Counted from the stretch's first letter, positions 33,435 to 51,245 are shown. The stretch is DNA of 64,000 bases from an uncultured Acidobacteriota bacterium (GCA_963809485.1 CAWEJX010000020.1:896001-960000), one strand, 5' to 3'. Made by a program: numbers and translations. The notes: generated by a model from the letters alone, not told the origin.

Positions 33435-33461
33435 GTGTTACGATTTCCATATTCGTGTTAC
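33435..33461. promoter_or_regulatory. Candidate metalloregulator (NikR-like) site GTGTTAC-N13-GTGTTAC
   Basis: Exact 7-bp direct repeat with 13-bp spacer just downstream of a ttgacg...tatgat promoter-like pair, at the head of the 33.4-38.4 kb operon. Confidence 0.5.
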
Positions 33462-34447
33462 AAAACAAGCGAATCGTGGAGGATATTTTGGAGGTATTGG
33501 CGGTATTCAAGGATTCGCTTGTGTCGACCGGAAGGTTCCTGCTGACTGTCATCCCGCTTTTTGCACTGGGGGTGATCCTGGCTCAGCTCTTCATTGAACT
33601 CCGCTGGCTCGACAAATTGTCCTGGCTTGCGCGTCCCTTGACGAAGCTCGGCCATCTGCACCCGGAATGCGCCGGAAGTTTTGCCGTCGCCGTCATCTCC
33701 CCCACGGCTGGACATTCGATGCTCGCGCGCTATCACAGTGAACAGCGCATAAGCCGGCCGGAACTGATCATCTCGGCGATTATGAACGCCCTTCCCGGCT
33801 ACATCGCACAGGGGCGCAGTGTCCTGCCCGTGACCCTGCCGCTGATCGGCATCTTCGGGCTGGCGTACTATGGCCTGGTTCTGCTTGCCGATCTGGTCAA
33901 ATCGTTAATTCTCCTGGCCGTCGGCCGGGTGATCCTTCCACATCCGGGAGCGGGGGTGACGTCCCTCCCCTCAGTCCCCGCACCAGAACGTCCAGGCGCC
34001 CGCGCAGCGCTTTCCAGCGCGCTGCGTGGTTCCGGGAAGATCGTCCCCAAAACTCTGAAAACACTGGTCCCGCTGACCCTGGCGGCCTTCTTTTTGATCG
34101 AGTCCGGAGTATTTGACTACGCTGCCAGGCACCTCGGTGTGGTAGCGCGCTATTTCCCCGTGCATCAGGCATCGCTGCCTATCATCGCCGCCCGCCTGGT
34201 CAGCCCGGTGGGCGCATACACAATGGCCGGAGGGCTGCTTTCCAAAGGGATGCTGGGAGGCAAAGATGTTGTCGCTGCGCTGCTGGTAGGCACGCTCCTG
34301 GCCACCATACCCAATATCAGGTACCTGGTCCCATACTATTTCGGAATCTTCGGGGCAACCATCGGGACTCAGCTCGTCATCGTTTCCACTCTGATGCGTG
34401 TCCTGGTTTTTACCGTAATCGTCGGTGTAGTAGCCCTGCTGCATTGA
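33455..34447 (+). CDS. Nucleoside-recognition (Gate) domain membrane protein
   Basis: Multiple TM segments, two-repeat layout, ARPLTKLGHL, PYYFGIFG; true start probably a few codons downstream. Confidence 0.7.
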   Translation: MLQNKRIVEDILEVLAVFKDSLVSTGRFLLTVIPLFALGVILAQLFIELRWLDKLSWLARPLTKLGHLHPECAGSFAVAVISPTAGHSMLARYHSEQRISRPELIISAIMNALPGYIAQGRSVLPVTLPLIGIFGLAYYGLVLLADLVKSLILLAVGRVILPHPGAGVTSLPSVPAPERPGARAALSSALRGSGKIVPKTLKTLVPLTLAAFFLIESGVFDYAARHLGVVARYFPVHQASLPIIAARLVSPVGAYTMAGGLLSKGMLGGKDVVAALLVGTLLATIPNIRYLVPYYFGIFGATIGTQLVIVSTLMRVLVFTVIVGVVALLH

Positions 34448-34500
34448 GCAGGCCTGCCTAAGAGCAGGGGAAAATTTGGATAACGAGAGGAAGGCTTCGG

Positions 34501-35073
34501 ATGTTGAACTGGGACCTGGCAAAAGAGGATCCCTATTACCGCGCGCGCCGGCTTGAGGAAGGGGCACGCAAGGCAGATACGGCCGAAGCCTGGCAGGAAT
34601 TCGCCGTCCTTAAAGCCGGCAAGGGCAGCTACGTACTCGCGGCCTATGGGTTTTTCAACAGCGCCCTTGTTTGTGAACAGGCGGGCGATGCGGAGCAGGC
34701 CATTGGCTTTTACGGGCAGGCATTTCAAAACGCCCGCCGCGCACGCAGCATGGAACTCGCTTTAATGATTGCCTACCGCCACGCCCTTCTCGCCGAAAAA
34801 ACCGGGAAATGGCAAGCATGCATCGGCGCCTACGAGGCGATGGGGGCGCTTGCGGAAGAACTGGGGAACCACTTTATTGCCGCGGATGCCTACGAACACG
34901 CAGCCGAAATAAAGGCCAAAATCGGAGAATCACTGGCCGGATACGCGAAGCCGGTCGAGCAATGGGAGAAGAATGCCGCTTACTGGCGCGAGCGGGGCCA
35001 CGAGGACGACGCCTCCTGGAGCGAACGCCACATCATGCTTTACAGAATCCTTTTCGGGACGCAGAAGGAATGA
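34501..35073 (+). CDS. All-helical TPR/SNAP-like protein
   Basis: Repeats such as AYGFFNSA..CEQAG, AADAYEHAA; stop overlaps the next ATG. Confidence 0.65.
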   Translation: MLNWDLAKEDPYYRARRLEEGARKADTAEAWQEFAVLKAGKGSYVLAAYGFFNSALVCEQAGDAEQAIGFYGQAFQNARRARSMELALMIAYRHALLAEKTGKWQACIGAYEAMGALAEELGNHFIAADAYEHAAEIKAKIGESLAGYAKPVEQWEKNAAYWRERGHEDDASWSERHIMLYRILFGTQKE

Positions 35074-36134
35074 TCGGGATACTTTTTCACGGGCCTGAAG
35101 TTTTTGATTCAGGCTGGGCACAGAAGATCGTCGAGGTTCTCGCCGCGACGGCCCCGCTGCGCTGTCTCCTGGCAGGCACCATGGGCCGGACAGCGGCAAT
35201 CGACAGCGGCCTGGCGGGCATCGAATGCCCCGGCACCCAGCCAAGCCAGATCCTGCGGGAAATTCAGAACGAAGTGGACCAGGTCGTATTTGCTAATTAC
35301 GGCAAGTCGCCGTCCTCGGGGCTCCTGCACGGGACGTTGATTGCCTCGAAGGCTGATATCGGCATTCCTCTCCTGCAGATCGAATGCTCTGCCGGCCTGC
35401 TTGTAGAGCTCAATTCCTTCAGATGCCCCGAACTGATCAGGGTTTTGGAACGACGGCTGGGGCTTCGGAAACACTGCCGTGTCGCAAACACAGATTCCAT
35501 CTGGGAAGAGAACGGCAGGACCTGCCGCAGACTCACAACTTCAGCTGCCGGCGACTTCGTCCTTGTGGATGGAATCGTAATCGGAAGAGCGACGGGCGAG
35601 GAAATTGTCATCGAGTGCCTGGGGCGACGAATCGCCGGAGCGCGCGGATTAAGCATCAAGAAGCACGGCCTGGAGAAGCTTGACCGCCTCGGCGGCATTG
35701 ATCTGAAATCGGTCAAACTGGCGACCACGCGCACCCTGCGTCGATCGGAGCACACTCCCCGGGTCGCAAAACGTGAGGGCAAGGGGATGGCATTCGTGGA
35801 TCACGCGGCGGCGCGCATCTTTGAACGGGTGCGCGGTGCGGAAGGCGCCGTAACCGTCGGGGACGACACGACTGCCATAGTCGGCGACATCCTCTATCGG
35901 TTTCAGATGCCGGTGATCGGCATCACCGACGGAGACGGGGACATGATTCTCGAGAATGCGAGGATCACACCCGGATCCGTAGTCTTTACCGTGCGCCAGG
36001 ATGACGCTTTCGGCCTCACTGTTTTCTCCGAAGTTTTCCAGAATCACGGCCTCATAGAAAGGCCGTTTAAAGCGGTCCGGGAACATATATCCGCGCTGGT
36101 GCGGGATGAGCTTGTGCGCGTTCAGGAATTCTGA
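35070..36134 (+). CDS. DUF2117-like protein
   Basis: MIGILFHGPEVFDSG, GTMGRTAAID, VDGIVIG, VDHAA, TVGDDTT, PVIGITDGD, as recalled for the mainly archaeal DUF2117 family. Confidence 0.75.
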   Translation: MIGILFHGPEVFDSGWAQKIVEVLAATAPLRCLLAGTMGRTAAIDSGLAGIECPGTQPSQILREIQNEVDQVVFANYGKSPSSGLLHGTLIASKADIGIPLLQIECSAGLLVELNSFRCPELIRVLERRLGLRKHCRVANTDSIWEENGRTCRRLTTSAAGDFVLVDGIVIGRATGEEIVIECLGRRIAGARGLSIKKHGLEKLDRLGGIDLKSVKLATTRTLRRSEHTPRVAKREGKGMAFVDHAAARIFERVRGAEGAVTVGDDTTAIVGDILYRFQMPVIGITDGDGDMILENARITPGSVVFTVRQDDAFGLTVFSEVFQNHGLIERPFKAVREHISALVRDELVRVQEF

Positions 36135-36149
36135 GCACATGTAAGGGAA

Positions 36150-38447
36150 ATGGAAATGAGACAGTCAGCAGAATGGCGCGTTTTCAGCGGTTCCCGCCGC
36201 CTCAATGGAGCGGCGAGCCTGTTGCTCAGCCTCGGCCTTACCGGATTCTTCTCCAGTTTCGCGACAGATTCAACCGCTCAGGAGGAATCCAGGGCTCCTG
36301 TACAAAGCCAGCTCAATGAAGTGGTCGTCGTTACCGCCACGCGCTCCGACAAAAAACTTGAGGAATCGCCCGGCAGCACGTCTGTGATCGAAATGGGCGA
36401 CATTGCCAACCGCAGTGTGAAAACAATTGACCAGGCCATCAACACGGTACCCGGCGTTTTCAACCGCCGGGGCAAGGGCCTGATGGACACTCAGTCCACC
36501 ATCACTCTGCGAGGTTTTCCCAGCCAGCAGAGAACGCTGATTTTGATGGATGGCGTACCCCTGAACGACAGCTACACCGGGGGCGTCCAGTTTGGAGGCC
36601 TGGCAACCGGGAATGTCGAAAGAATCGAGGTGGTCAGGGGGCCGTTCTCCAGCCTTTATGGCGGCAATGCAATGGGGGGTGTCGTCAACATTATCACAAG
36701 GATGCCTGAAGGCAGGCAGTTGATAATGAGCGGCGGCTTCGGCACCGGGCTCGGGAACCATCAGGCGATCAACGACTTGAGCCGGGGGTACTTTTCCTAC
36801 GGTGAAACATTCAAGGGTAAACTCGGCATCCTGATCAGCTACGGCTACAGCCGCGCCAACGGTTTTGCCAACGACCTGAACGCTCAAAGCAGCCAGCCGC
36901 CGGCTGGAATTACCGGCTACGGCGAAACCACGGACACACAGGGGAACAAGCGTTTTGTTTTGGGAGACAGGGGCGACAACACCTGGGAGGATCATGACTT
37001 CGGCCTCAAAGCGAGCTACCGGGTTTCGGACGCCACGCAGTTCGGATTCTCGCTTGTCACAACCGGCTACAAGTACGGAACCGATGAACCGCACAGCTAT
37101 CTTCGCGACGCCTCCGGTAATCCCGTGTATTCTTTCACATCGGGCAAGACAACCGTCCGTGAGTCCTCATTTCTGAGCGGATCCGGCAATAAAAGACAGG
37201 ACATTTACAGCCTGTTCTACGAAACGAAGATCGGCCGGGCCCGGGTAAGATCCAGCGTGAGTTATTTGAACGTCAACCACAACTGGTACACAACGCCGGG
37301 ATCCACGGACGCCACAACCATAAGCGGCGGACCGGGCACGGTAGCCGAAACTCCTGTCGACAAGACCACCGGCAGCATTCAATTCACGTTTACGATACTT
37401 GACCGCCACTTCCTTACTGCGGGAACGGACCTGACGGGCAGTTCCGCTCAAACCCGGGAGTACGGGCTGACAAACTGGCGCGATGAAGGCTCACGATCGT
37501 CTATGACCTATAACGCCCGCGGGAAATCTCTGACAAACGGTTTTTACCTGCAGGATGAGATTCTTCTCCGGCATGACCTGACGGCCTATCTTGGCGTGCG
37601 CGGAGATTACTGGCGGACCTATGACGGCTACGCCAACCAGGCGGACACGGCAGGATACCCGGCCCATTATGCTGAAAGGGATGCCTTCAGCCTCAGCCCC
37701 AAAGCCGCCGTTGTTTACCGTCTATCCCATGGAACAACGCTGAGAAGCTCGATCGGAAGGGCCTTCCGCCCCCCGACAGTCTATGAGTTATACAGGACAT
37801 GGTCCTACTCATCCGGGACCGTTTACCGGGGGAATCCTGATCTGGCACCCGAAACCGCTATCTCGTGGGATGCAGCCATCGATCAGGACCTGTGGAGAGG
37901 AGCCCGATTTTCAGGGGCGTATTTCGAGAATCGAATGTCCAATCTGATTTACCGCCGAACCGACCCGGCAAATTCCAAAATCAACGAATATGTCAATGCA
38001 GGCAGGGCAAAGGGCAGGGGGATCGAACTGGAGTTGAGCCAGTGGTTTACTCCGGAGTTGAAATTATTCGCCAACGGCACATTCAACAGCGCCAAAGTGA
38101 CCGAGAATACCTCGAAACCGTCAACTGAAGGTAAGTTCCTCACCTATCTTCCGCGATGGACCGGAAATGGCGGCGCCGAATTTGAACGAGGCCGATTGAC
38201 GGCGACGCTTGTGGGCAGGTATGTATCCAAACTCTACACGCACGATGAAAATAAAGATCTCGTCACCAATGTGCCCGGATCCTATGATCCCTATTTTAGT
38301 GCCGACGCCAAAATGATTTTCCGGATCAGCCGCCTGCTGGCCTTCTCGATTTCCATCGAAAACATCCTTGACCGGGACTATTTTTATTCCTACCTGGCTC
38401 CGGGACGTTCGTTCTTTGCCGAGATACTGGTGAACTGGATAGACTAG
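36150..38447 (+). CDS. TonB-dependent receptor
   Basis: EVVVVTATR, plug RIEVVRGPFSSLYGGNAMGGVVNIIT, GNPDLAPE, ENILDRDY. Confidence 0.95.
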   Translation: MEMRQSAEWRVFSGSRRLNGAASLLLSLGLTGFFSSFATDSTAQEESRAPVQSQLNEVVVVTATRSDKKLEESPGSTSVIEMGDIANRSVKTIDQAINTVPGVFNRRGKGLMDTQSTITLRGFPSQQRTLILMDGVPLNDSYTGGVQFGGLATGNVERIEVVRGPFSSLYGGNAMGGVVNIITRMPEGRQLIMSGGFGTGLGNHQAINDLSRGYFSYGETFKGKLGILISYGYSRANGFANDLNAQSSQPPAGITGYGETTDTQGNKRFVLGDRGDNTWEDHDFGLKASYRVSDATQFGFSLVTTGYKYGTDEPHSYLRDASGNPVYSFTSGKTTVRESSFLSGSGNKRQDIYSLFYETKIGRARVRSSVSYLNVNHNWYTTPGSTDATTISGGPGTVAETPVDKTTGSIQFTFTILDRHFLTAGTDLTGSSAQTREYGLTNWRDEGSRSSMTYNARGKSLTNGFYLQDEILLRHDLTAYLGVRGDYWRTYDGYANQADTAGYPAHYAERDAFSLSPKAAVVYRLSHGTTLRSSIGRAFRPPTVYELYRTWSYSSGTVYRGNPDLAPETAISWDAAIDQDLWRGARFSGAYFENRMSNLIYRRTDPANSKINEYVNAGRAKGRGIELELSQWFTPELKLFANGTFNSAKVTENTSKPSTEGKFLTYLPRWTGNGGAEFERGRLTATLVGRYVSKLYTHDENKDLVTNVPGSYDPYFSADAKMIFRISRLLAFSISIENILDRDYFYSYLAPGRSFFAEILVNWID

Positions 38448-38654: not shown

Positions 38655-38700
38655 TGTAATTTTCATTGTCTTATCGTAATAATTTGTTATTAATAGTTGC
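38655..38700 (+). promoter_or_regulatory. Shared promoter/operator motif, copy A
   Basis: 38 of 44 bases match 40170-40213; ttgtc at -35-like position with GT(A/T)AT units at 10-bp spacing. Confidence 0.7.
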
Positions 38701-38787
38701 CTTTGCGCCTGGAATCATGGATTCCGGCGATGGATTAATCTATTACTAGGGATTCGCCGAAGATTCGAGTCCTGATTGGAGTCTGCC

Positions 38788-39987
38788 ATGCGTAAGACTT
38801 TTGTTTTGGCCGCGATTCTGATTGCAGTGACGGCCATTTGCTGGCTGATTGCGGCAGCTTCTCCGCAGGAAGAAGTCAAATCCAGGGCTTATGTCGGCCA
38901 CCAGAACGACCGGGATGTCCAGAACTTTGCCAGGCAATACCCGAAGGCTATTGGAACGCGGCTGGACGACTGTCAGACCTGCCACCGCAGCGGCGTGGCC
39001 GGGACCGATACGGCACGCGAATTCAGCCCGTGCGGTTATTGCCATTTACTTCAGTATTCCAATCCGCGGTACAAGACGGGGGTCCCCAAAAGCTTTGAGG
39101 ACACCCTCAATTCTTATGGGCTCGCTTACAAACAGGCGGGCAGGACACCCGAGGCAATAGCGTCGATCGGGAAGCTCGATTGCGACGGCGATACACACTC
39201 AAATTCCGAGGAAATTGGTGCGTTGCGATACCCCGGCGACAGTGCAAGCCGGCCGGGGCAGCCTTTGGCTCCGACCATAGTCCTAAGCTGGCAAGATATC
39301 CGGAAACTCCCCACGCACAAACAGTTTATGCTGATTAACACCAACTCCGAGCCGTTCGACGACTACGTGACCTATGCAGGGATCCGGGTCAGGGACCTGC
39401 TTGAAGCCGCGCATGTGGACCTGAGCGGCGCGGCCGGCATTACCGTATTTGCGCCCGATGGATATAGCACCGATTATGCCCTGAGCGATATAGGCGGGCC
39501 GTTTCCCAAAGGCTATTTTTATGCCGCGCCAGGCGCCATCAAGGATCCGGAGAAGGCTCTGGCTCGTTATCCGGACAAAATTCCGCCGGGAGTAGCAGAC
39601 GGTAAGGAGATTCCGGACACGCCATGGCTTCTGCTGGCCTTCGAGCGTGACGGCAAGCCCCTCGATACCTCTCACTATGAAAAAGGCACCGGGCGCCTCG
39701 CCGGAGAAGGGCCCTACCGGCTTGTTAAGCCAATGCGGGACCTGCTGGCAGGAGATCCTTCGAGACCGGGGCGGCCCGACAGATCCATAAAAGCGAAGGC
39801 CTTCGGAGACAGCTGGGATTTTGACAAGACAATCGATCACAATGCAGGGGCCTGCATTCGGGGCGCGACGGTCATTAGGGTCAACCCGATGCCTGCGGGA
39901 TTCGAGGAGTACGACTGGAAGAACGGGTGGCCCCTGATCGAAGGGAAGCAAATCGTGATTTTCGGCAGAGGAGTCACGAAGAGATAG
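38788..39987 (+). CDS. Exported diheme protein with sulfite-oxidase-like C-terminal domain (GEGP-motif diheme family)
   Basis: Signal peptide; CQTCH and CGYCH; DCDGD; GIRVRDLL, APDGY, LLAFERDG, GEGPYRLV. Confidence 0.8.
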   Translation: MRKTFVLAAILIAVTAICWLIAAASPQEEVKSRAYVGHQNDRDVQNFARQYPKAIGTRLDDCQTCHRSGVAGTDTAREFSPCGYCHLLQYSNPRYKTGVPKSFEDTLNSYGLAYKQAGRTPEAIASIGKLDCDGDTHSNSEEIGALRYPGDSASRPGQPLAPTIVLSWQDIRKLPTHKQFMLINTNSEPFDDYVTYAGIRVRDLLEAAHVDLSGAAGITVFAPDGYSTDYALSDIGGPFPKGYFYAAPGAIKDPEKALARYPDKIPPGVADGKEIPDTPWLLLAFERDGKPLDTSHYEKGTGRLAGEGPYRLVKPMRDLLAGDPSRPGRPDRSIKAKAFGDSWDFDKTIDHNAGACIRGATVIRVNPMPAGFEEYDWKNGWPLIEGKQIVIFGRGVTKR

Positions 39988-40169
39988 CCAATTCGCATTC
40001 TCCGCAGCCTTCCTGCCGACGCGGCTCGGATATGCATACACACTCTCGGTTGAAGGTTGCAGGTTGCAGGTTTCAAAAATCAGATGCGCGCCTCATCGAT
40101 AGATCCTTTGAATAAATCAGATTATGTTTCCCTGTCCTAATTTGTACAGCCGGAAGACAGCAGTTAAAC

Positions 40170-40215
40170 TGTAATATTCATTGACTTATTGTCATATTTT
40201 GTTATTAATTGTTAT
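40170..40215 (+). promoter_or_regulatory. Shared promoter/operator motif, copy B
   Basis: gtaat(40171) ttgac(40181) gtcat(40191) gttat(40201) gttat(40211). Confidence 0.7.
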
Positions 40216-40258
40216 TTTGTTCTCATGCGTTTGAGAAATAGATAAAGGAGAATTATCC

Positions 40259-42693
40259 ATGTGTTTCAAACACAACATGCGGGCATATTTTGTATTGCTT
40301 GCATTGACTCTGCTGATTTTTGCCGGAGCATTTTCCTCTCTGCAGGCGCAGACAAAGCAAATGCTCCAATGGTCCAGTGATCTCAATTACCTCAAAAACG
40401 CCTCCGCGGACGAATTGACGACTAAACAAGGCCGCGATTGTGCAAATCCGCAACGGCGTGGATCTCTGGCTGAAGATGCATCCGGATACCAAAATCGATT
40501 TGCAGTCGGCCCCGCCGGAACCGTGGAACGCGGATCAGCTCCGCGACCAGGTCACCGCGCTCATAGCTGCGGTAGAAGGCATCCTGAAAGAGGATCCCAG
40601 CCGGCCGTTCGACATGGGAGTGACGATGGTCAGCGTCACGGCGGAGGCGTCGGCTCTGTCCCCGGTAGCTGACAGCTTCGACACGCACAGAAATTGTCAA
40701 CCGCCAAGCGCTGACTTCAGCCGCGGCGCTCGATTACATACCTGGAGTGGCTATCGACCACGCTTCATCAGGACGGAACGAGGCATCCATGCGCCTTCGG
40801 GGATTCACGTCAAAAGGTCAGGTCCCTGTCTACATCGACGGCATTCAGGTCAGCATGCCCTACGACGGCACGATAGATTTCAACCGTTTTCTTTCCAACG
40901 ATTTCTCAGAGGTACAGGTATCCAAGGGCTTTTCCTCTCCATTGCTTGGCCCCAATGCCCTGGGCGGTTCCATCAATCTGGTCACAAGGCAGCCGGATAA
41001 GAAGTATCAGGGGGATGTGCTTATGGGAACCGGATCTGGCGACATGCTGCTCTCGTCGGTAAATCTCGGATCCCGATGGGAAAAATTCTATCTTCAGGGT
41101 TCATTTGACTGGCTTCAGAACGATTATGTTCCTCTTTCCGACAATTTCCCGTTGAACGCTTTTCAGCCAACCAACGAACGCAACAATTCCGATACTCGCG
41201 ATGCGAAGTATTCCGGACGTTTCGCCTATACTCCAAAGGGCGAAGACCAATATGTATTCAGCTACATCAACCAGAAGGCTGAAAAAGGCGTACCCCTTTA
41301 TGCGGGACCAAATTCCGCCGCAACCTTCAACCAATTTTCCTATAGAAGGTGGCCGTATTGGAACAAAACCGCCTACTATCTCATCACCAACACCGGATTA
41401 GGCGAATCTAGTTCCATCAAGCTGCGCGCGTACTACGACCAGTTCAACAATGAGCTGGACTTTTACGACAATGCCTCCTTCTCAACCATGAACAAGGCCA
41501 CGTCGAACCACAGCTTCTATGACGACCACAGCGCCGGCGCATCCGCCGAATTCAACACACGGGCATTACCTCGGAACTTGCTCAGCGCTTCCTTCTTCTT
41601 CAGGGACGATAATCACAAGGAAATTCTCGAATATCCGGCAAAGGCGCCCTATCCGTTCATCACACCAACGCAGGTCAACAGGGCTCAGATGTTTTCCATG
41701 GGATTCCAGGATGTAATTGCGATTACAGAGCGCCTGCGCGCAACATTTGGCTTCAGCGCAGACTATATGAAGGGAATGCACATTCAGAAGCTCAACAGGG
41801 CTGAGACTGCCCTGATACCCGTCACCTGCGCATCCAACCCGGACAATGACTCCTTCCGGGGCTGCCTTGCCAGCGTGTGGAACTACAACCCGCAGGCTTC
41901 TCTTTCCTATTCGATTTCGTCGCTGGACACCGTTTACTTTACCATTGCCGACCGAGGCCGATTCCCCCTGCTAAAGGAAAGCTACTCTTACAGCCTGGGC
42001 CGGGGAATCCCGAATCCCGACCTGGAGCCGGAGCACAACACCAGCTTCAATGTCGGCTACTCGCACGCATTCCCGGGCAAGACCATGTTCCAGGTTGAAT
42101 ACTTCTACAACCGTCTCCGCAATGCGATTCAATCGGTCTACAGAGTGGATCCCGGCGGAACCGAAGATCCCTTCTGCAGCAATACCGGTTCTCAGGCAGG
42201 ATATTGCAGCCAGAACGTAAACATCGCCAGAGAGCGGCATCAGGGATTCGAGGTCAGTATCCGAAGCACGCCGATTTCGCGCCTGACCATGGACGTGAAC
42301 TACAGCTACCTCAACCGCAACATGGAGTATGATTTCGGGAACGTCGTCGATGTCAGCCAGGTCCTCACCTCGGTCCAGATTCTGCCGACCTATCCCAAGA
42401 ACAAGGTCATCTTCAATGCCACACTGAGGCTGCCGCACGAAATCCTGGCCATTGGCAATTACCGATATGAGGGCGGCATTGTCCTGCAGGATACAACCTA
42501 CAGAACCCCGCCCGGCAACCTAGCCTTTTCTTCTTCCTATGGTACAGTGGATGTAGGGGGCATTATCCCCATTTATGCGGGATTTTCCGTGCAGGCGGGC
42601 GTGAAGAATATCATCGACCGCGACTATTATTACACGGCCGGCTATCCCGAAGCGGGCCGCAGCTGGTACTTTAACGCACGCTACCGGTTCTAG
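40259..42693 (+). CDS. TonB-dependent receptor with N-terminal extension (two apparent +1 frameshifts)
   Basis: Three overlapping frames join near 40430 and 40686; plug VSKGFSSPLLGPNALGGSINLVT; NPDLEPE; C-terminal GRSWYFNARYRF. Confidence 0.88.
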
Positions 42694-42769: not shown

Positions 42770-43795
42770 ATGAAGCAGACGATTCTTCCAGCCGCGTTCG
42801 CAGTAGCCCTCGCAATGCTCAGCGGCTGCAGCTATAAAACAGCGCAGGATGGGGAAACCATAACCGTTACGGACCAGCTGGGCCGCACGGTTACGGTCCC
42901 AAGGCACATGACACGCATATCTGCGCTCCATCACTTCGGCGGAAGGATCGTGTTTGCGCTGGGTCAACAGGACAAACTTGTGGAACAGAGCCTGTATGGC
43001 AGAGAGGCAAAAGCCCTGGCCGCGGTGGATCCGAAATTTGCGGCTATGCCCAAAACCCAGGCCCAGGACGGACACGCCATCAATCTCGAAAGCTTAATCG
43101 CTTTCGGACCGCAATGCGCGTTCGTCTATGCGTCCTTCGAAAAATCCGAAATGCAGCAGCTGGAAAATGCGGGGATCAAAGTCATTGCCGTCAAAGGAGA
43201 GACCCTGCAGGAAAGTTTTGATGCCGTCATGCTGATGGCCAAAGTGCTTGATTGCGAGGAAAAAGGCAGAGACTATGTGCGCGAATGTAGGCGATTGCTT
43301 TCACTGGTTCATGACCGTATCAAGGATATTCCTACCCCAAAACGCCCTCGCGTCATTTTTGCCGGCCCGAAAAGCATCTATACCCTTGCAACGGGCGAGA
43401 TGCTCCAAAGCCAGATGCTCGAACTGGCGGGCGCTGTGAATGCGGGTGCGTCATTAAGAGGCTTCTGGAGTGATGTTTCACCGGAACAGGTGGCCGCCTG
43501 GAATCCTGATGTCATTTTTATCGGATCGTCGCTTGCAACCTATGGAGTCCAGGAGGTGCTCCACAACTCACAGTTCAAATCCGTGAAGGCTGTCCGGAAC
43601 GGGAAGGTATACGTTTTCCCATCCAATATCGGCTGGTGGGATTACCCGGCTCCGCAATGTGTATTAGGCGTGGTCTGGACAGCGAAGACTCTCTATCCCG
43701 AGTGCTTCAAGGACGTGGATATTATCCGGATCGCCGATGAATTTTACGGCAGGTACCTGGGACACACATTCACATCCATGGGTGGTAGACTTTGA
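42770..43795 (+). CDS. ABC transporter substrate-binding lipoprotein (Fe-siderophore/cobalamin class)
   Basis: Lipobox LSGC; VTDQLGRTVTVP, VSPEQVAAWNPDVI, VKAVRNGKVY, WWDYP. Confidence 0.9.
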   Translation: MKQTILPAAFAVALAMLSGCSYKTAQDGETITVTDQLGRTVTVPRHMTRISALHHFGGRIVFALGQQDKLVEQSLYGREAKALAAVDPKFAAMPKTQAQDGHAINLESLIAFGPQCAFVYASFEKSEMQQLENAGIKVIAVKGETLQESFDAVMLMAKVLDCEEKGRDYVRECRRLLSLVHDRIKDIPTPKRPRVIFAGPKSIYTLATGEMLQSQMLELAGAVNAGASLRGFWSDVSPEQVAAWNPDVIFIGSSLATYGVQEVLHNSQFKSVKAVRNGKVYVFPSNIGWWDYPAPQCVLGVVWTAKTLYPECFKDVDIIRIADEFYGRYLGHTFTSMGGRL

Positions 43796-43905
43796 TTCGA
43801 AAATCCAAAATCGGGATTCGAGATTGCAGATCGCAGAATCACATCCCGGATCCAACCCAATGAAAAAGCCTCACAAGCTATTCCTCCTGCTTTTCTTTCT
43901 GCTAA

Positions 43906-45199
43906 GGCGGCGGTAATAAATAAAGGTATCAACTGACTTTAGGAATGCGGACTGATGATGTAATTCCAATCACCATGAAACTTGCTTCGCTGTATATTCA
44001 CTCGATTCATTTCTTGTTCAGTGACTTTGCGTCCTGTCGGGTATTTCCGCCGATCCAGTCTACATGTCACCTTTAGCCCTTTTGCAGTTGTTGTTCGGGC
44101 AATTAAGTTAACAACCGTTTCGTAGTCGCGCAATGGCTCGCCCCGCCAATTCGAAGAGATGAATGAAAACAGTCGATGTTCCACCTTGTTCCACTTGCTC
44201 GTCCCGGGCGGGAAATGACACACGGAAATCGAAAGACCAGTTTCGTCGGCGAGTTTCTGAAGTTCCAGCTTCCAGAGCCGCAGCCGAGTACCGTTGCTGC
44301 CTCCTGCATCCGCGGTAATGAGCAACTTCCCGGAGGGTTTATACAAGCGGTGGCCCGCAAAGCGCCACCAACCACGAATCGAGGCCACGGCGAATGCTCC
44401 GGTGTCATGATCCGTACCCACCACTACGAAGCCTCTATTGTATCGAAGGTCATAGATGCCATAGGGATGCGCCCGCGGAACAGAGGGATGGGGAAAATCA
44501 TGACCATTTACTTTTAGAGGCGTTTTCGTCGGACGCCATTGTTGGCCTTTGTTTACGTAGTTACCGATCAGTTCCTTCTTTTTGGTATCCACTGAGATAA
44601 CTGGCATTCCGGACGCCAAGGCTCGTTTTACCTGTGTATTAATGTAACGAAATTGGGCATCACGATCCGGATGATCGCCTCCTTCCTCCAGCTTGCGGTT
44701 GCTTTGCAGACTAAAGCCTTGCTCCCGGAGAAGTTGCCCAACTTTTACATAGCTAATTGTATGATGCTGACGCGTGAGTTGCGATGCCAAAGCTCGTGTA
44801 CTCTTGCAAATCCATCGCAGCGGTGATTCGGGATCCCCGCGTGTTTCCGGTTCAATCATCTGCTCCAAAAAAAAGGACAGATTGGGATCGGTCGTTGTAA
44901 TTCGTTTCCTGCCGGCTCCGCTTCTCCGAATGCGGCCCTCGGGTAGGTGTATGTCCTCGTGAAGTTCCCGTAAGCCCAAGGCGATGGCCTTCCTTGAAAG
45001 CCCGCAGGCGCGGTGCACTTTGGAGACGCCACCATATCCCAATATTTTGGCTTCGTTTGCCGCGAATAGTCGCCGTGTTCGTTCATCCAAAAAGGGCCAG
45101 AGTGAATCCAATTTGTTGCGCAGGTCCGAGAGAGTTTTCATAATTCATGAGTATATCTCTCTTTACCACTAGTTGATACCTTTATTTATTACCGCCGCC
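43906..45199 (-). mobile_element. ISAzo13-family insertion sequence (1294 bp)
   Basis: Perfect 29-bp terminal inverted repeats ggcggcggtaataaataaaggtatcaact; 3-bp TAA target duplication at 43903-43905 and 45200-45202. Confidence 0.95.
43939..45141 (-). CDS. ISAzo13-family DDE transposase
   Basis: LDERTRRL, RGDPESPLRW, HPDRDAQF, ISVDTKKKE, ITADAGGSNG, PPGTSKWNKVEHRLFS. Confidence 0.95.
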   Translation of the reverse strand: MKTLSDLRNKLDSLWPFLDERTRRLFAANEAKILGYGGVSKVHRACGLSRKAIALGLRELHEDIHLPEGRIRRSGAGRKRITTTDPNLSFFLEQMIEPETRGDPESPLRWICKSTRALASQLTRQHHTISYVKVGQLLREQGFSLQSNRKLEEGGDHPDRDAQFRYINTQVKRALASGMPVISVDTKKKELIGNYVNKGQQWRPTKTPLKVNGHDFPHPSVPRAHPYGIYDLRYNRGFVVVGTDHDTGAFAVASIRGWWRFAGHRLYKPSGKLLITADAGGSNGTRLRLWKLELQKLADETGLSISVCHFPPGTSKWNKVEHRLFSFISSNWRGEPLRDYETVVNLIARTTTAKGLKVTCRLDRRKYPTGRKVTEQEMNRVNIQRSKFHGDWNYIISPHS

Positions 45200-46168
45200 T
45201 AAGCCTGGGCATCTCGCTTTGCGTCGGGCGATACCCCATCGGGTTGCGGGGCATCGCGCAACTCCTGTTCTCGGGTTTGGGAATTAAGGATGTGCTTCCG
45301 CCGCCCAGCCAGGACACGCTGGTTATCTTCTGGAATGTGCGGCTGCCGAGAATCATCATGAGTTTCACTGTCGGCTGCGGCATTTCGATCGCAGGGGCCG
45401 TGTTTCAGGCATTGTTCCGCAATCCGCTGGCTGCACCTGAGATTTTGGGCGTTACTGCCGGGGCATCCTTCGGCGCTGCCATGGCCATCCTGTTTTTTGC
45501 CGGTGTGGCCCTGACGATACAGGGCAACGCCTTTATTTTCGGCATTGTTGCCGTTTCGCTCGCTTACCTGCTGTCGTCCAGGAGTTGGGACAAGAGTGCA
45601 TCGGTTCTGGTAATCTCAGGTATCGTGGTATCGGCATTCTTCCAGGCCGGGTTGTCCATTCTGATGTATATAGCCAATCCGTACGACCAGCTGGCGCAGA
45701 TCATTTTCTGGATCATGGGCAGTTTTCACACAGCTTCCTGGGCCAAGGTGGAGACCACACTGCCGGTTATCGTCCTGGGGTCGGCTTTGATGCTGGTTTA
45801 CCGCTGGCGGCTCAATATCATGACGCAAAATGAAGAACATGCCCTGGCGCTGGGAGTCGATGTTTTCCGCTGGCGATTCTTTTATATCGTTGTGTGCACG
45901 CTCATGGTCGCTGCTTCGGTTGCGGCAGCGGGAACGATCGCCTGGGTCGGGCTTATCGTTCCGCACATCGGGCGCTACCTGGCAGGCACGGATCACAGGA
46001 AACTGATACCTGCCACCGCTTTCCTGGGAGGAACCTTCCTGTTGCTGATGGACACTATGGCCCGTTCCATGCTGGCTTCCGAAATCCCCATCAGCATTGT
46101 TACGTCGGTGATAGGAGCGCCTTTTCTGGGGTATCTGGTCATAAGCAGAAAAAGCATGGGGGTATCCG

Positions 46169-46954
46169 GTGAGCTTGGCAGTTGAGCACCTCAGCGCCGG
46201 GTATGACAAGGTCCCGGTATTAGAAAACATAAGCCTGAGTGTCGAGCAGGGGAATATCTGCGCCCTGATGGGACGCAACGGAAGCGGAAAAACCACCATG
46301 TTGCGCTGCATCAACGCGATCCTCAAACCGTTCCAAGGAAGAGTGGTCGCCCAGGGGAAGGAGATTGGCCACCTCTCCCGGGTCGAGATCGCGCGCCTGA
46401 TAAGCCTGGTTCCGCAGGGCATTCAAACCGCATTTTCTTTCTCCTGTCTGGAGATGATCCTGATGGGCTCTGCCACCCGGATCAGGGCTTGGTCCGCACC
46501 AAGCAGAAAGGAGATCCAGCGAGCTTTGGAAATATTGGGAGAAGTGGGGATCCAAGCCCTCGCGCAACGCCCCTTCAACCAGCTCTCGGGGGGTGAACGC
46601 CAGCTGGTAATGCTTTCGCGCGCCCTGTTTCAGGACGCGCCGATTATGCTTCTGGACGAACCGAATTCCCATCTTGATTTTTCCAATCAGCACCGCATGA
46701 TGGCATTGATGCGAGAGATGGTTAAAAAACGCGGCTTGGCCGCACTGATTACGCTGCACGATCCCAACCTGGCTCTTTATTACTGCGATCGCATCGTCAT
46801 GCTTAAGGATGGCCGGATCGTCGCCCACGGTCCTGCCGGCGAAGTAATGGAAGATCATATTCTGAGGCAGGTGCTGGGGGAAAACATCCAGACCGATCGC
46901 ACAATAGGGGGGCTCCAGGTAGTAACGCCCCGGACGGCGATGACACAGAGGTAA
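46169..46954 (+). CDS. ABC transporter ATPase (FepC/BtuD-like)
   Basis: GRNGSGKTT, LSGGERQ, LLDEPNSHLD, LHDPNLA. Confidence 0.93.
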   Translation: MSLAVEHLSAGYDKVPVLENISLSVEQGNICALMGRNGSGKTTMLRCINAILKPFQGRVVAQGKEIGHLSRVEIARLISLVPQGIQTAFSFSCLEMILMGSATRIRAWSAPSRKEIQRALEILGEVGIQALAQRPFNQLSGGERQLVMLSRALFQDAPIMLLDEPNSHLDFSNQHRMMALMREMVKKRGLAALITLHDPNLALYYCDRIVMLKDGRIVAHGPAGEVMEDHILRQVLGENIQTDRTIGGLQVVTPRTAMTQR

Positions 46955-46958
46955 AACT

Positions 46959-47966
46959 ATGAAGTGCAGCTATTGCGAATGGCATTGCCGGCTGGACACG
47001 GATCAATACGGCGTTTGCCGGATGTATTATGCCGACCAGGGAGAAATCAGAGAGCGCTTTCCCGGACGGTGGTCCTACTCGGTTTCAAGGATGGAATCAC
47101 TTCCTTTCTATCACGCCTATCCCGGCAGCCGTTCCCTGGCTGTCGGCACGAGAGGCTGCAATTTCAACTGCCGTTACTGTTCGAATGCCTATATTGCTCT
47201 CCAGGATCCGGAGGCGCTTTCGCAAAACACCTATACCATGACGCCTGACGAACTGGTGTGCATGGCGCAGAAGCTGAAGTGTCACAACATCGTTTTTAAC
47301 GTGAATGAACCCACGATGTCCCTGCCAACCCTGATGGAGCTGAAAAAAAGCGCCGGAAAGGCAGGCGTTCCACTGGGGTGCCTCACCAACGCCTATGGCA
47401 CCGAGGAGTCCACAGAGCTGCTGGCATCGGTTTTTGATTTTATAAACATCGGCCTGAAAGGAATTTCATCAGGCTTTTACAGAGAGTACATCGGCATCCG
47501 GGATCTGACACCCATATTGCGCAATGTACGCCGGCTGTGTGCCATCCGGCACGTGGAGGTCACCACGCCCGTCATCGAGGGCGGCAACGACAGCGAACTG
47601 GATGCAATTGCGCAATTTCTATCCGGCATTGACCGGGAAATACCCTGGCACGTTTTCCGGCTGCTGCCCGAATATGAGATGAAGAACGCGGATTACCCCA
47701 GTATCGAAAAAATTGGCCGGGCTCTTCAGACTGCCCGAGAAAAACTGGCGTATGTGTATTTCCACAATTTCGTGGGCTCGGATTGGGTCAGCACAACGTG
47801 CCCCAATTGCAGGGCGGAGGTGATCGAACGGATCAGCCTGGGGTGCGGCGGGGACAAACTCGATAATTTCCGCTGCCTCGACAACCTCTGCCCTGAGTGC
47901 GGGCATGCCATAAGAATGCATGGGCAATTCATGGCTCCCAGGGCAGAGGGTGCGGAGGTTTCATGA
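46959..47966 (+). CDS. Radical SAM enzyme (AmmeMemoRadiSam/PflA-like)
   Basis: N-terminal CSYCEWHC...GVC, ESLPFYH, CNFNCRYC, C-terminal CPNC and CPEC. Confidence 0.88.
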   Translation: MKCSYCEWHCRLDTDQYGVCRMYYADQGEIRERFPGRWSYSVSRMESLPFYHAYPGSRSLAVGTRGCNFNCRYCSNAYIALQDPEALSQNTYTMTPDELVCMAQKLKCHNIVFNVNEPTMSLPTLMELKKSAGKAGVPLGCLTNAYGTEESTELLASVFDFINIGLKGISSGFYREYIGIRDLTPILRNVRRLCAIRHVEVTTPVIEGGNDSELDAIAQFLSGIDREIPWHVFRLLPEYEMKNADYPSIEKIGRALQTAREKLAYVYFHNFVGSDWVSTTCPNCRAEVIERISLGCGGDKLDNFRCLDNLCPECGHAIRMHGQFMAPRAEGAEVS

Positions 47967-49097
47967 GCCTGGCAATTGTGGATGCGAGAGAGTGGCAGAA
48001 CCTGTTGGACCTGCGGACCGGGAAGAAAGCCGAGGACGAAAGCCCGCAGACCTTGATGGTTCGCGATATTTTGAAGAGGCATCCCTACCCGGGAGATGTG
48101 GACGACCGAAGCAACCGATGGGTCACCGATACAGCATTGGATCTGGTCAAAGCCTACCAGCCGCAGCTCGCCTGCATTTTTTACGCCCATCAGTTTTTTG
48201 CTGGACGCTACAACCCGATGACGGATGATCAGCGGAGGAAAATGATCGAGGACGTTTTTCACGAGGTGCGCCGTTTGGTCGAGGAATCCGGATATACGCC
48301 CGTGATCGTTGGCTCGGGCGACATGGTTGAGGTGGCCGGGGAAATAGATCTGAGCAAGGTGGACGGTATAGCAATCTCGAGCCACTGGTCCGGCCGGTAT
48401 GCCGGTTTGCACAAGGCCAGCAGGCGCGACCTGGATTTCGTTCGATCGCTGGACCAGATCGAGAGGGTGGTCCGGCGGGACGAATGGATAGGTCTGTTTG
48501 GCGGAGCGGCTCACAGAACCGGAGCGCATACCGGAATACCTTCTGGTAGCCCGCGAAGGATGGACTTTTGTAACCACCGGGACCCCGATGCGCAGAGCTT
48601 TGCGGATACCGGGTGCGAGTTTCTCGATTCCTGTTTCCACGCCGTTGGGTCAGCCGGGCTCCATTACGGATATTCGCGCGCTGATCGAGCACAATCTGGG
48701 CAGCGCCAGGATCGCTTTGATCATCCTCGAAGGCCTGGGAATTCGGGACTTTCTATTGCCCTGCCATCCTTGCATCAATAGCGTGGATTGGTATTACTAC
48801 GAACCGGGGGACGCCCAATATCTGACGCTGACAACAGGCACCCACAAGGTTTTTGAATACCCCAGCGGGTATCAGTACCATGACGAAACCGACGCGAAAA
48901 CTGATTATCCGTTCTCAGGATATTTCCTGACGGTTCCGGAGAATACACTGGCGGGGGATTTTCCCGGAAAAAGCGTCGCGGTCGGCAACCACAGCATGTT
49001 CGTACACATGGTGTTCGGAGCCGATATCTGCATCGAGTGTTTCGCCCGAAACCTTGATAACCAGGGGTGCCTCGGCGTAATTCACAGGTTCAAGTGA
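47963..49097 (+). CDS. Hypothetical protein, possibly degenerate alkaline-phosphatase-like fold (one +1 frameshift near 48508)
   Basis: ATG overlaps the radical SAM stop; frames 47963-~48508 and ~48509-49097 join (...LFGGA/LTEPERIPEYLLVA...). Confidence 0.6.
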
Positions 49098-49304
49098 TTC
49101 GAGATTCGAAATTCGAGATTGAGCAAAGCTTTCGCTGATGCATTGCGCCTATGCCCGGCATAGGCCATCGATGATATCTTTGGTTGTTGGGATTTAACGA
49201 TTGGCGGACTTATCGGGAGGGCCGGAGTCGCTCAGAGCCCTCCGGCTCCGCCGGCCCTCCACTATCCAATGGCTAGAGTGATACCAACATAACATGCCTT
49301 TTAG

Positions 49305-49340
49305 TTGATTTCTAGTATTTTTTGTTATTTATTGTAATTT
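49305..49340 (+). promoter_or_regulatory. Shared promoter/operator motif, copy C
   Basis: ttgat(49305) gtatt(49315) gttat(49324) gtaat(49334), similar to copies A and B. Confidence 0.55.
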
Positions 49341-49374
49341 TTTTCTTTAAAGGCCAGACAAGGAGAATACTCAA

Positions 49375-50535
49375 ATGCCGACCCTGAGAAGGACTCCGAG
49401 TGGATTGATCCGCCTGTCCATCCCATTGGCGCTATTGGCGTTGTTGGGCGTAGCCTATTCTGCATACAAGGGCCACGCTGACGACAGAGATGTCAATGCT
49501 ATTGTGGCCGCCTATCCCGGTCTTAAGAATGCTGCGGCGGATTCCTGCGCCACCTGTCATAAGGGCGGCAAAGCTGCCGATCCCTGGAATCGCAATGCAG
49601 TGCGGAATGAAACCAACTGCGGTTACTGCCATGTGGTACACGTCAGGAGCAAGCGCGATGTCCGAGAGACCCTGAATCGCTATGGGGCCGATTATCTGGC
49701 CGCAGGTCGCAGCCTGGCGGCTATTAAGGCGCTGGCGGGCAAAGATTCGGATGGAGACAACTTCACTAACGAATCGGAATTTTTGCAGGGAACAAATCCA
49801 GGCGAAGCCGGAAGCAATCCGGCCGCGCGCATTGCGCCTCACAAAATTCTGGCATCCTCAGAAATAGGCAAATTGTCGCCTGCCATCAGCCAGAAGGTCT
49901 TTCTTAACACTTCGCACAACAAAGCCGGCGACTTCTACAACGTATACCGGGGATACAGGGTCTATGAAATGCTTCGCGCCGCCGGGATCGCCGATAACGC
50001 GGAAACGGTGGATTTTATATCGCTCGACGGCTTCGAAGGCACTTTTACAATGGACGAATTGAAGAAATCGTGGCCGCAAGCAACCCCGGTCATGGGTTTG
50101 AGCAAGAAAGAATACGGCCCCTGCGGATGGGTAAACTATAATGCACCTGGCCTGGACCCGAAGAAAGCATTACCGGATGCCAGAATCATGCTCGCAGTCG
50201 AGGAAAACGGCAAAAAGATCGAGACGGCCCGGCTTGACTCGGAAACGGGAAAAATCATCGGCACGGGACCGCTCCGCCTGGTGGATCCTCAGCACCGTAT
50301 CTCCCCGCCGGACGTGCCCATGTACGCGGAAAAAACATGCCAGGACAAGGCGGCGCCGGAGCACCGCTTCAATGAAAAATATGACCATAACGGCGGCAGA
50401 AGCTCCTTTGCCATCGTCGCCATCCGGATCAATCCGCTGCCCCGAGGCACCCGTGACTATCAATGGGAGAAAACCCGCGATCAGCTTGTGGCTGAAGGTA
50501 AACTGGTGATCTTTGGAGCCTTGAAAGGGCAATAG
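49375..50535 (+). CDS. Second exported diheme/sulfite-oxidase-fold protein, paralog of 38788-39987
   Basis: YKGH, CATCH, CGYCH, TLNRYG, DSDGD, SLDGF, GTGPLRLV, DHNGG, IRINPLP. Confidence 0.8.
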   Translation: MPTLRRTPSGLIRLSIPLALLALLGVAYSAYKGHADDRDVNAIVAAYPGLKNAAADSCATCHKGGKAADPWNRNAVRNETNCGYCHVVHVRSKRDVRETLNRYGADYLAAGRSLAAIKALAGKDSDGDNFTNESEFLQGTNPGEAGSNPAARIAPHKILASSEIGKLSPAISQKVFLNTSHNKAGDFYNVYRGYRVYEMLRAAGIADNAETVDFISLDGFEGTFTMDELKKSWPQATPVMGLSKKEYGPCGWVNYNAPGLDPKKALPDARIMLAVEENGKKIETARLDSETGKIIGTGPLRLVDPQHRISPPDVPMYAEKTCQDKAAPEHRFNEKYDHNGGRSSFAIVAIRINPLPRGTRDYQWEKTRDQLVAEGKLVIFGALKGQ

Positions 50536-50574
50536 AGAGGAAAGATTATTCGCCGAACAGGAGGAGACAGGACA

Positions 50575-51245
50575 ATGAAAAAGATGTATCGCGGGATTTT
50601 GGTCATGTTTCTCCCCGCATTCTCGTGGCCCAGTTTGCTGCCGGCCAGGGCACCAAAGAGCAGATACAGAAAATGCACCAGGACCCGAAGGCCTACGTCG
50701 CGATGCTGGAGAGTCCGGAACGCATATCGGAGCAGAAACCCGAAGAAGTCATTGCTGCTCTGGGCATCAGAAAGGGCGAGGTCCTGGCGGACATCGGCGC
50801 AGGATCCGGATTATTCGCTTTCCGTTTTGCGCCTCATGTGGGCGACAACGGTCGCGTCTACGCCGTCGATGTCAACTCGGACATGATTTTGTATATGAAC
50901 CGGCAAATCCGCGATAGGGGCATCCGGAATGTTGTGACTGTTCTCTCGGCTCCCGACGACCCGTTGCTCATGGATGCTTCCATCGACCGTTTTTTCATCT
51001 GCAATACCTGGCACCACGTGACGAACCAAGCTCAGTACGCGGCGCTGATGAAGAAAATGCTCAAGCCGGGAGGCCAGATTGTCGTTCTCGACTATAAAAA
51101 GGAGCAGCTGCCGGTCGGCCCTCCGCCCGAAATGAAGATGGCGCGCGAAGAGGTGATCCGCGGGATGGAAGCCGGCGGTTTCAAGCTGCAAAAGGAACAT
51201 ACCTTCCTGCCCTACCAGTACTTCCTGGTTTTCGCCGCACCATAG
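50575..51245 (+). CDS. Class I SAM-dependent methyltransferase with apparent signal peptide (one frameshift near 50620)
   Basis: RBS ggagga and MKKMYRGILVMFL join LVAQFAAGQG...; ADIGAGSG, VYAVDV, LKPGG, LPYQYF. Confidence 0.82.

Follow-up and report, generated by a model that had tools for sequence, protein, structure and literature searches.

Within a 64,000-nucleotide stretch of DNA from an uncultured Acidobacteriota bacterium (the window, G000:C20:896001-960000, from a 6.04-Mb assembly of 21 contigs with completeness 95.7 and contamination 7.3), positions 33,435 to 51,245 carry genes for two TonB-dependent receptors, an ATP-binding cassette (ABC) importer, a radical S-adenosylmethionine (SAM) enzyme, and several proteins of uncharacterised families. 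A first description made from the sequence alone (the sequence-only reading) took these 18 kb for one system. Comparison with related genomes shows that they are four separately inherited units, modules A to D, probably for trace-metal uptake, which stand side by side and do not form a single system. The earlier gene list was largely right and was confirmed by Pfam and NCBIfam; the corrections concern reading frames, gene limits, and the position of an insertion sequence (IS). Its statement that all genes but the IS share one strand was borne out by these matches and the listing of open reading frames (ORFs), which place every gene on the plus strand and the IS on the minus strand. The features are as follows.

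33455-34447, plus: Gate-domain polytopic membrane protein of 330 residues, module A (PF07670, 38 bits)
34501-35073, plus: helical TPR-like protein of 190 residues, module A (weak TPR_12, 17.7 bits, cut-off 30.1)
35070-36134, plus: DUF2117 protein of 354 residues, module A (PF09890, 304.2 bits, cut-off 25; model positions 1-324 of 325)
36150-38447, plus: TonB-dependent receptor 1 of 765 residues, module A (plug and barrel)
38655-38708, plus: AT-rich motif, copy 1, before GEGP_A
38776-39987, plus: GEGP dihaem protein A (GEGP_A) of 403 residues, module C (NF041762, 435.2 bits, cut-off 300; CXXCH at 66 and 86, GEGP at 310)
40170-40223, plus: AT-rich motif, copy 2, before receptor 2
40259-42693, plus: TonB receptor 2, module C, in three frames here (intact, 809 residues, in L004:8867-11296)
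42770-43795, plus: Peripla_BP_2 binding protein of 341 residues, MolA-like, module B (Pfam; solved-structure match)
43861-43900, plus: first 13 codons of the FecCD permease, module B (ATG at 43861), cut off by the IS
43901-45204, minus: ISAzo13-family IS (transposase 43939-45141; NF033519, 569.6 bits, cut-off 200)
45205-46185, plus: remainder of the FecCD permease, MolB-like, module B (Pfam; solved-structure match)
46169-46954, plus: ABC ATPase of 261 residues, module B (Pfam/NCBIfam)
46959-47966, plus: radical SAM enzyme of 335 residues, module B (PF04055, 68.6 bits, cut-off 29.5; CX3CX2C at 67/71/74)
47963-49097, plus: 377-residue protein, module B, split by a +1 insertion at 48517 (identified from intact relatives; predicted alkaline-phosphatase-like fold)
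49317-49346, plus: AT-rich motif, copy 3, before GEGP_B
49375-50535, plus: GEGP dihaem protein B (GEGP_B) of 386 residues, module D (NF041762, 345.7 bits; CXXCH at 58 and 82)
50575-51245, plus: class I methyltransferase, module D (Pfam; domain ORF from 50625)

The comparison drew on 30 genus genomes, on 80 genome loci from a scan for the 377-residue protein family, and on 43 metagenome loci from a scan with a DUF2117 alignment. Counts for module A refer to the 25 loci that are 6 kb or longer, together with four genome loci, and those for the radical SAM neighbourhood to the 79 of 80 loci that hold a long match to the 377-residue protein. For the neighbour census, all ORFs from 7 kb upstream to 6 kb downstream were clustered and one representative per cluster was run against Pfam, clusters resembling antisense shadows being left out of that scan. 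The main reference for alignment was the syntenic locus L004 of a genome from the same genus (G006), with 82-90% DNA identity to the window; apart from the lesions described below, the proteins of the two are 82-95% identical.

Among the 30 genus genomes, DUF2117 occurs in six, the 377-residue protein in eight, and GEGP proteins in 26. Co-occurrence gives a divided answer: DUF2117 and the 377-residue protein share four genomes but are adjacent in just two, and modules A and B adjoin only in the source genome (G000) and in G006. In tblastn maps, the Gate, TPR-like, DUF2117, and receptor 1 genes lie together in G006, G009, G012, G015, and G332, and the remaining modules follow them only in G006. 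The genome G012, a single contig, holds an intact module C/B (in the order GEGP_A, receptor 2, binding protein, permease, ATPase, radical SAM, 377-residue protein, DUF364, methyltransferase) about 600 kb away from DUF2117, and in G015 the radical SAM/377-residue pair, GEGP, and DUF2117 are found on three separate contigs. DUF2117 is absent from all 79 radical SAM loci except that of G006, and the pair is absent from the module A loci other than those of G000 and G006. Since the families mostly do not lie together in other genomes, the reading as one 18-kb system fails.

An integrated system that imports and remodels a chelated metal or a tetrapyrrole such as F430 or a corrinoid is therefore very unlikely, even though its genes adjoin on one strand apart from the IS, its layout is syntenic in G006, the 377-residue protein is also present in four of the six DUF2117 genomes of the genus, and the N-terminal domain of DUF2117 resembles a CbiG homologue. 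Besides the dispersal of the modules, the missing signs of cobalamin uptake tell against it. The sole Rfam hit in the window was a tRNA, and seven related loci had none, so that neither a cobalamin nor any other riboswitch was seen, and the cobalamin models of NCBIfam stayed under their cut-offs (BtuF, 43.2 bits against 234; TonB-B12, 144 against 599.7). The riboswitch and the BtuB/BtuF model matches of a BtuBFCD cobalamin system are thus both missing here. Of the substrates first proposed, F430 and corrinoids have no support, whereas molybdenum or tungsten has gained some for the ABC importer/radical SAM part, and uptake across both membranes is likewise supported. The periplasmic redox handling and radical remodelling of the sequence-only reading stay at the level of inference. 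For the island as a whole, we lean slightly towards nickel as the substrate of module A and molybdenum or tungsten as that of modules C, B, and D together, judging from homology and gene neighbourhood.

Within module A, the start of DUF2117 overlaps the stop of the TPR-like gene (ATGA); the product of the latter is weakly TPR-like, as first called, but falls under the TPR_12 cut-off. Of the 25 loci, 23 pair DUF2117 with the TPR-like gene, 19 with the Gate gene, and 21 with a TonB receptor, which belongs to either of two types; in six to seven module A loci, the genes directly upstream encode a type II ABC importer. A gene for NikR (136 residues; NikR_C, 113.6 bits) neighbours the cassette in nine of the 25 loci. 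Six of these nine have the order nikR, receptor, Gate, TPR, DUF2117, while in G015 and G332 nikR is divergent and stands beside the Gate gene. Receptor 1 shares 42-47% identity with the nikR-linked receptors of metagenome loci. Because nikR adjoins it in nine loci, this conserved, widespread cassette of anaerobic bacteria probably serves nickel uptake. The DUF2117 family counts 828 homologues at E 0.001 and reaches Methanocaldococcus jannaschii and Methanosarcina acetivorans; in a draw of 301 genomes from the phylum, it exceeded the cut-off in G000 and in one marginal case (25.4 bits, neighbours in frame).

Nickel TonB receptors, including FrpB4 and FecA3 of Helicobacter pylori, CntO, and NikH, are listed in the available part of PMC11247825. 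Module A resembles the NikR-controlled receptors FrpB4 and FecA3 in that a TonB receptor stands beside nikR in related loci. It differs from them in its Gate-TPR-DUF2117 triad, which goes unmentioned in that part of PMC11247825, and in that nikR lies elsewhere in this genome. A literature search on DUF2117 returned nothing related by title. In the proposed scheme, a nickel species would enter the periplasm through receptor 1 and be moved inward by the Gate-domain protein, alone or, in other lineages, with the neighbouring ABC importer, while DUF2117 and the TPR protein would act on the cytoplasmic side.

Several observations weigh against nickel. In G000 and G006, nikR is not beside module A (in G000 it is found on contig C6), and it was not seen in 16 of the 25 module A loci, many of which are short contigs. 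Moreover, the structure model of DUF2117 (predicted local distance difference test score, pLDDT, of 89.7) has three domains, and its residues 1-137 superpose on the CbiG homologue 3eeq_B (Z 11.6, root-mean-square deviation (rmsd) 2.2, 106 residues; next Z 8.0). The likeness to the N-terminal domain of CbiG (cobalt-precorrin-5A hydrolase) is one of fold, without a sequence link: the DUF2117 profile gave chance-level rows only against the sequences of solved structures. As modelled, the CbiG-like domain would point to tetrapyrroles as much as to nickel. The other two domains had no structural match, Foldseek gave no clear match for DUF2117, and no solved chain matched the Gate protein.

A direct repeat, GTGTTAC-N13-GTGTTAC, at 33435-33461 spans the Gate start codon and occurs only in G000, G006, and L091. 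A search for NikR half-sites found the direct repeat in these three close relatives, whereas 1.32 Mb of control loci contained no such pair; no NikR operator was identified.

Turning to module B, the permease is closest among solved structures to MolB HI1471 (2nq2_A, 227.8 bits), followed by FhuB (165.3), HmuU (161.1), and BtuC (138.6). The binding protein aligns over nearly its full length with MolA HI_1472 (3psa_A; 122.3 bits, E 1.8e-34, residues 33-330 to 4-319), compared with 63.9 bits for the nickel-binding protein 4ino and about 32 bits for BtuF. The three genes have the same make-up as MolBC-A of Haemophilus influenzae (HI1470/HI1471/HI1472), with the permease favouring its counterpart by 60 bits; unlike there, the importer follows a TonB receptor and precedes the radical SAM enzyme and the 377-residue protein, and its ATPase is not specifically MolC-like. 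Homology thus supports metal transport by a putative type II importer of the MolBC-A type. PMC4031551 describes MolBC-A as a low-affinity importer of type II for molybdate, and its MolA as binding both molybdate and tungstate. Because MolA binds free oxyanions, a chelate would not be required.

The gene directly upstream of that for the 377-residue protein encodes the radical SAM enzyme in 72 of the 79 loci, and five of the other seven have less than 1 kb of upstream sequence. The two genes overlap by 4 nucleotides in 40 loci and by 1 nucleotide in 13. In the window, the gene first reported as a "coupled hypothetical" (47897-48781) and the ORF 48498-49097 are one gene, split by the single-base insertion at 48517: the translational coupling to the radical SAM gene stands, but the gene is broken here and its intact relatives encode 377 residues. 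The intact ORF of G006 has 399 residues, and database relatives, with 375-379, start 22 codons inside it. At E 0.001, the family has 507 homologues, none of them named; the 120 listed ones all lack a Pfam domain. The 80 loci span Acidobacteriota, Syntrophorhabdus, Geobacter, Smithella, Spirochaetota, Sporomusa, Desulfovibrio, Holophaga, and others.

The intact 399-residue ORF has no Pfam and no meaningful NCBIfam match, and the family profile gave chance-level rows only against the sequences of solved structures. Its structure model (pLDDT 83.7, predicted template-modelling score (pTM) 0.89) resembles phosphonoacetate hydrolase and nucleotide pyrophosphatase (NPP) enzymes in Foldseek (E 8.8e-5, template-modelling (TM) score 0.33-0.38) and in VIA-align (Z 10.6, rmsd 3.6, 217 residues), and PF01663 clusters are the nearest named neighbours of its cluster in the protein atlas. 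The model suggests a distant alkaline-phosphatase-like fold that shares its core with the phosphonoacetate hydrolase/nucleotide pyrophosphatase branch. From the alkaline phosphatase superfamily it is set apart by these TM scores, by the lack of a family-model match, and by the apparent absence of a conserved Ser or Thr at the usual place of the nucleophile, as read by eye from alignment A1 only.

In the radical SAM enzyme, C67, C71, and C74 are invariant in 25 sequences, as are the cysteines at positions 3, 6, 10, 20, 108, 141, 281, 284, 296, 311, and 314; these additional cysteines suggest further metal sites. The best NCBIfam model is TIGR04337 (AmmeMemoRadiSam), with 146.8 bits under a cut-off of 220, and the nearest solved relatives are pyruvate formate-lyase activases (3can, 30.8 bits) and, weakly, MoaA. 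The enzyme therefore resembles AmmeMemoRadiSam enzymes and glycyl-radical activases in its best matches, yet it differs from the former in scoring under the cut-off, in its extra invariant cysteines at both ends, and in a partner with a predicted alkaline-phosphatase fold in place of AMMECR1 or Memo. Neither of these Pfam families was found among the 16 ORFs of the island or the neighbour clusters scanned. Literature on AmmeMemoRadiSam, judged from titles and the openings of abstracts, included none on function.

The most frequent neighbours of the pair in the 79 loci are the ATPase (52), the permease (48), and a TonB receptor (29), together with a 290-residue methyltransferase (25), TonB (22), DUF364 (22), ExbB (20), ExbD (19), and TrmO_N (14, one representative with FmdE). 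A deaminase and NTPase_1 occur in ten loci each, MoeA in seven, and a ModA-like protein in four. MoeA or ModA is found beside the pair in nine distinct loci; in G015, ModA (226.6 bits against 62.5, TIGR01256) is followed in turn by the ATPase, radical SAM, 377-residue protein, and MoeA genes. These nine loci, the MolB-like permease, and the MolA-like binding protein make up the support for molybdenum or tungsten in the ABC importer/radical SAM part. In the scheme we propose, the MolBC-A-type importer would carry the metal across the inner membrane, and the radical SAM enzyme and the 377-residue protein would act in the cytoplasm on the imported metal, ahead of its use by MoeA.

Two side observations concern the surroundings of the pair. 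A 583-residue fusion of a tetrapyrrole methylase with an Oxidored_molyb-like part lies near it in seven loci (L017, L024, L029, L033, L034, L038, and L051). The locus of Sporomusa ovata DSM 2662 (L056) comprises TPR, binding protein, radical SAM, 377-residue protein, FmdE, permease, TrmO_N, ExbB, ExbD, TonB, and ATPase, and adjoins a divergent Fur-family gene with ZnuABC.

The assignment to molybdenum or tungsten has a number of findings against it. The top solved match of the binding protein is 4hn9 (129.4 bits), labelled "iron complex" with its ligand unstated, a narrow lead over MolA; the ATPase does not tell the candidates apart (HmuV 127.4 bits, MolC HI1470 117.3); the top NCBIfam models for the transporter parts are haem, corrinoid, and ferric citrate, all under cut-off; and receptors 1 and 2 are best matched by TonB-hemin TIGR01785 (220 and 106.8 bits, cut-off 316.85). 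Nor are free oxyanions known to require a TonB receptor. MoeA and ModA are absent from 70 of the 79 loci, and only 17 of the 80 encode a binding protein that shares 50% identity or more with that of the window, so that the radical SAM pair has more distantly related type II importers for neighbours as well. Finally, the DUF364 and TrmO-like genes of related loci would fit a chelator made by the cell instead.

Some of these findings could be read as ordinary iron uptake, in which the dihaem proteins would reduce ferric chelates and the radical SAM enzyme would break the carrier anaerobically. The hemin matches of both receptors, a haem ABC ATPase row (205.2 bits), the iron-complex label of 4hn9, and the Fur-family gene beside the Sporomusa ovata locus agree with it. 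All haem and hemin scores lie under the curated cut-offs, though, the permease scores 60 bits higher with MolB than with FhuB or HmuU, the Sporomusa Fur-family gene is paired with ZnuABC, and the recurrent specific neighbours are MoeA, ModA, and NikR rather than iron genes. We therefore regard iron as an unlikely substrate.

A somewhat less unlikely alternative, though still an improbable one, is that module B imports a metal (molybdenum or tungsten, nickel, cobalt, or zinc) bound to a SAM-derived chelator, from which the radical SAM/377-residue pair frees it. TonB receptors normally carry chelates, and the candidate genes recur beside the pair together with TonB/ExbBD and receptors, at the frequencies given above. 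That the DUF364, TrmO-like, and methyltransferase genes make such a chelator is doubtful to the same degree. The DUF364 protein Orf5 is reported to cyclise methyl-SAM (PMC12930334), and DUF364 to occur with rare-metal transporters (PMC2954201) and as part of a modABC operon that is cofit with nifH (bioRxiv 10.1101/2024.03.05.583561). The island itself contains no DUF364 or TrmO gene, the nearest lying about 18-20 kb downstream; no exporter or synthetase was identified; and MolA-type proteins bind bare oxyanions. A literature search on TonB-dependent uptake with molybdate, tungstate, or MolBC returned, by title, no work on TonB-dependent uptake of either metal.

Modules C and D are built around the GEGP proteins, a family of 488 representatives; the literal GEGP string is absent from protein B. 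GEGP_A-type genes (above 417 bits) are present in ten of the 30 genus genomes and adjoin a receptor-2-type gene wherever contigs allow, including in four genomes without the radical SAM pair (L136-L139). GEGP_A and receptor 2, which has an N-terminal extension of about 130 residues ahead of its plug, are thus a conserved pair, while GEGP_B-type genes often stand alone. A profile of 28 members matches the Oxidored_molyb-domain protein 7kom_A (E 2.8e-4) and the pterin-binding protein 7kos_A (E 0.23). Among these members, eight touch PF00174 (best E 2.4e-4), 17 Temptin_C, and nine TSP3_bac; GEGP_A itself has no PF00174 row at E 0.1. Only the four haem cysteines are invariant in the 28 sequences, so the cysteine that would ligate molybdenum is lacking. 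The GEGP proteins are dihaem proteins that are exported and have a sulfite-oxidase-like fold, probably without a molybdenum cofactor. They are thereby comparable to molybdenum-free sulfite-oxidase-fold proteins such as 7kos, which we take to be PruR, but contain in addition a fused dihaem c domain and a DxDxD stretch resembling a calcium site, and are paired with a TonB receptor. A literature search on GEGP diheme proteins found nothing. Receptor 2 and the exported GEGP_A would handle the metal species at the outer membrane and in the periplasm. Downstream of the methyltransferase gene lie nested perfect inverted repeats, with 26-nucleotide arms at 51387-51412/51540-51565 and 31-nucleotide arms at 51443-51473/51507-51537.

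The 16-nucleotide core of the AT-rich motif, TTTGTTATTWATWGTW, has exactly three copies in the 6.04-Mb genome, all at the points listed above, compared with one per strand for a reversed control. It is conserved in G006 and precedes GEGP_A, receptor 2, GEGP_B, or the methyltransferase in G018, G023, G004, and G334, and is thus found before the same genes in five other loci of four other genomes, 40-90 nucleotides ahead of the start codons. In our reading, it resembles TG-n-TATTAA, an extended -10. The shared promoter motif of the sequence-only reading is therefore real at three points, but a simple sigma-70 scan did no better than shuffles (9 sites against 11.0 +/- 3.3, no excess). The motif marks modules C and D as a putative single regulon, and receptor 2 may lead module B. 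As it is absent from the upstream region of modA, it is not shared with the classical molybdenum transporter. A fourth copy with one mismatch is flanked by a minus-strand ORF of unknown function, itself adjacent to an AbiEii gene, and by plus-strand ORFs of unknown function (L134 3645-3660; G000:C8:229644).

Whether modules B to D still work in this organism has also to be weighed. The IS, which has 34-nucleotide inverted ends (97% complementary), CT on both flanks, and a single copy in the assembly, sits inside the permease gene after 13 codons, an interruption that leaves module B at least partly inactive here. Alignment with G006 reveals single extra bases at 40422 and 40683 in receptor 2, so that this gene, correctly recognised at first, is spread over three frames, and at 48517 in the 377-residue gene. 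The methyltransferase called exported does have a signal-like hydrophobic leader (ATG 50575), but the reading frame of this leader differs from that of the enzyme domain in the window, whereas G006 has both in one frame. The relative G006 bears a separate mark: it has lost about 1.5 kb (L004 11373-11987), which joins binding-protein residues 1-121 to permease residues 225-313, an independent lesion of the same importer.

That modules B to D are decaying, functionless remnants in this organism would account for the IS, the frameshifts, and the deletion in G006, and is possible, though we think it doubtful. The frameshifts may be assembly errors. In the few-contig sister assembly G334, the corresponding 12 kb contain seven splits or more, as is typical of consensus errors, a xanthine-dehydrogenase-family gene of the window is split too, and the coding sequence is otherwise well preserved relative to G006, at the protein identities given above. 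Contigs from public sequencing runs cover pieces at 90-100% identity, none of them identical across 40422, 40683, or 48517, in a search whose matching runs held only 5-6% of words. In the locus concerned of G334 (L141, G334:C9:465000-484900), the C/B/D layout is the same, with DUF364, GEGP_A, receptor 2, the 377-residue gene, and GEGP_B split and one in-frame TGA. The split xanthine-dehydrogenase-family gene of the window (52951-55360, minus) consists of a hammerhead part at 54806-55360 and a MoCoBD part at 52951-54813, by frameshift or assembly error.

In broader terms, it is possible, albeit tentative, that the island holds two undescribed subsystems of anaerobes, a TonB-dependent route for molybdenum or tungsten and a NikR-linked Gate-TPR-DUF2117 nickel cassette shared with methanogens. 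In the former, a cofactor-less dihaem protein with a sulfite-oxidase fold would work with its own receptor, the MolBC-A-type importer would bring the metal in, and the radical SAM enzyme with its putatively nucleophile-less partner would convert the metal species or hand it to MoeA. The substrate might be, for example, thio-forms from sulfidic habitats. The pocket of the alkaline-phosphatase fold binds tetrahedral oxyanions. Little is known of how anaerobes gain access to molybdenum, tungsten, and nickel in places where sulfide sequesters them; formate dehydrogenases, aldehyde oxidoreductases, hydrogenases, and CO dehydrogenases are limited by these three metals. Three widespread uncharacterised families, for which no description was found in the literature searched, would gain a testable setting: DUF2117 with nickel, the radical SAM/377-residue pair with MolBC-A-type importers and MoeA, and GEGP with its receptor. 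Cultivable carriers include Sporomusa ovata DSM 2662, Syntrophorhabdus aromaticivorans UI, and Desulfosarcina ovata.

Other molybdenum- and tungsten-related genes lie elsewhere in the window and just beyond it. A group at 13006-25153 comprises an AOR-family gene with a 4Fe-4S partner, a tetrapyrrole-methylase-like gene, a regulator, ModABC, and an Oxidored_molyb-like ORF, including the following.

13006-15048, minus: AOR-family gene
18816-19781, minus: tetrapyrrole-methylase-like gene
20578-21690, minus: regulator with helix-turn-helix (HTH) and PBP_like domains

The regulator presumably resembles the tungstate-responsive TunR. ModA (211.5 bits against a cut-off of 62.5) and ModB (234.3 against 182.6) exceed their cut-offs, while ModC with TOBE stays just under (280.4 against 285.05). 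At the other end of the window, an ORF at 62861-63988 on the minus strand encodes a 375-residue TonB receptor barrel without a plug in frame. Up to 11 kb past the window (L135, G000:C20:960001-975000), there follow an enzyme of the molybdenum-bis(pyranopterin guanine dinucleotide) (Mo-bisPGD) type with a 4Fe-4S subunit, two DUF169 genes, a purple acid phosphatase, DUF364/DUF4213, and TrmO_N.

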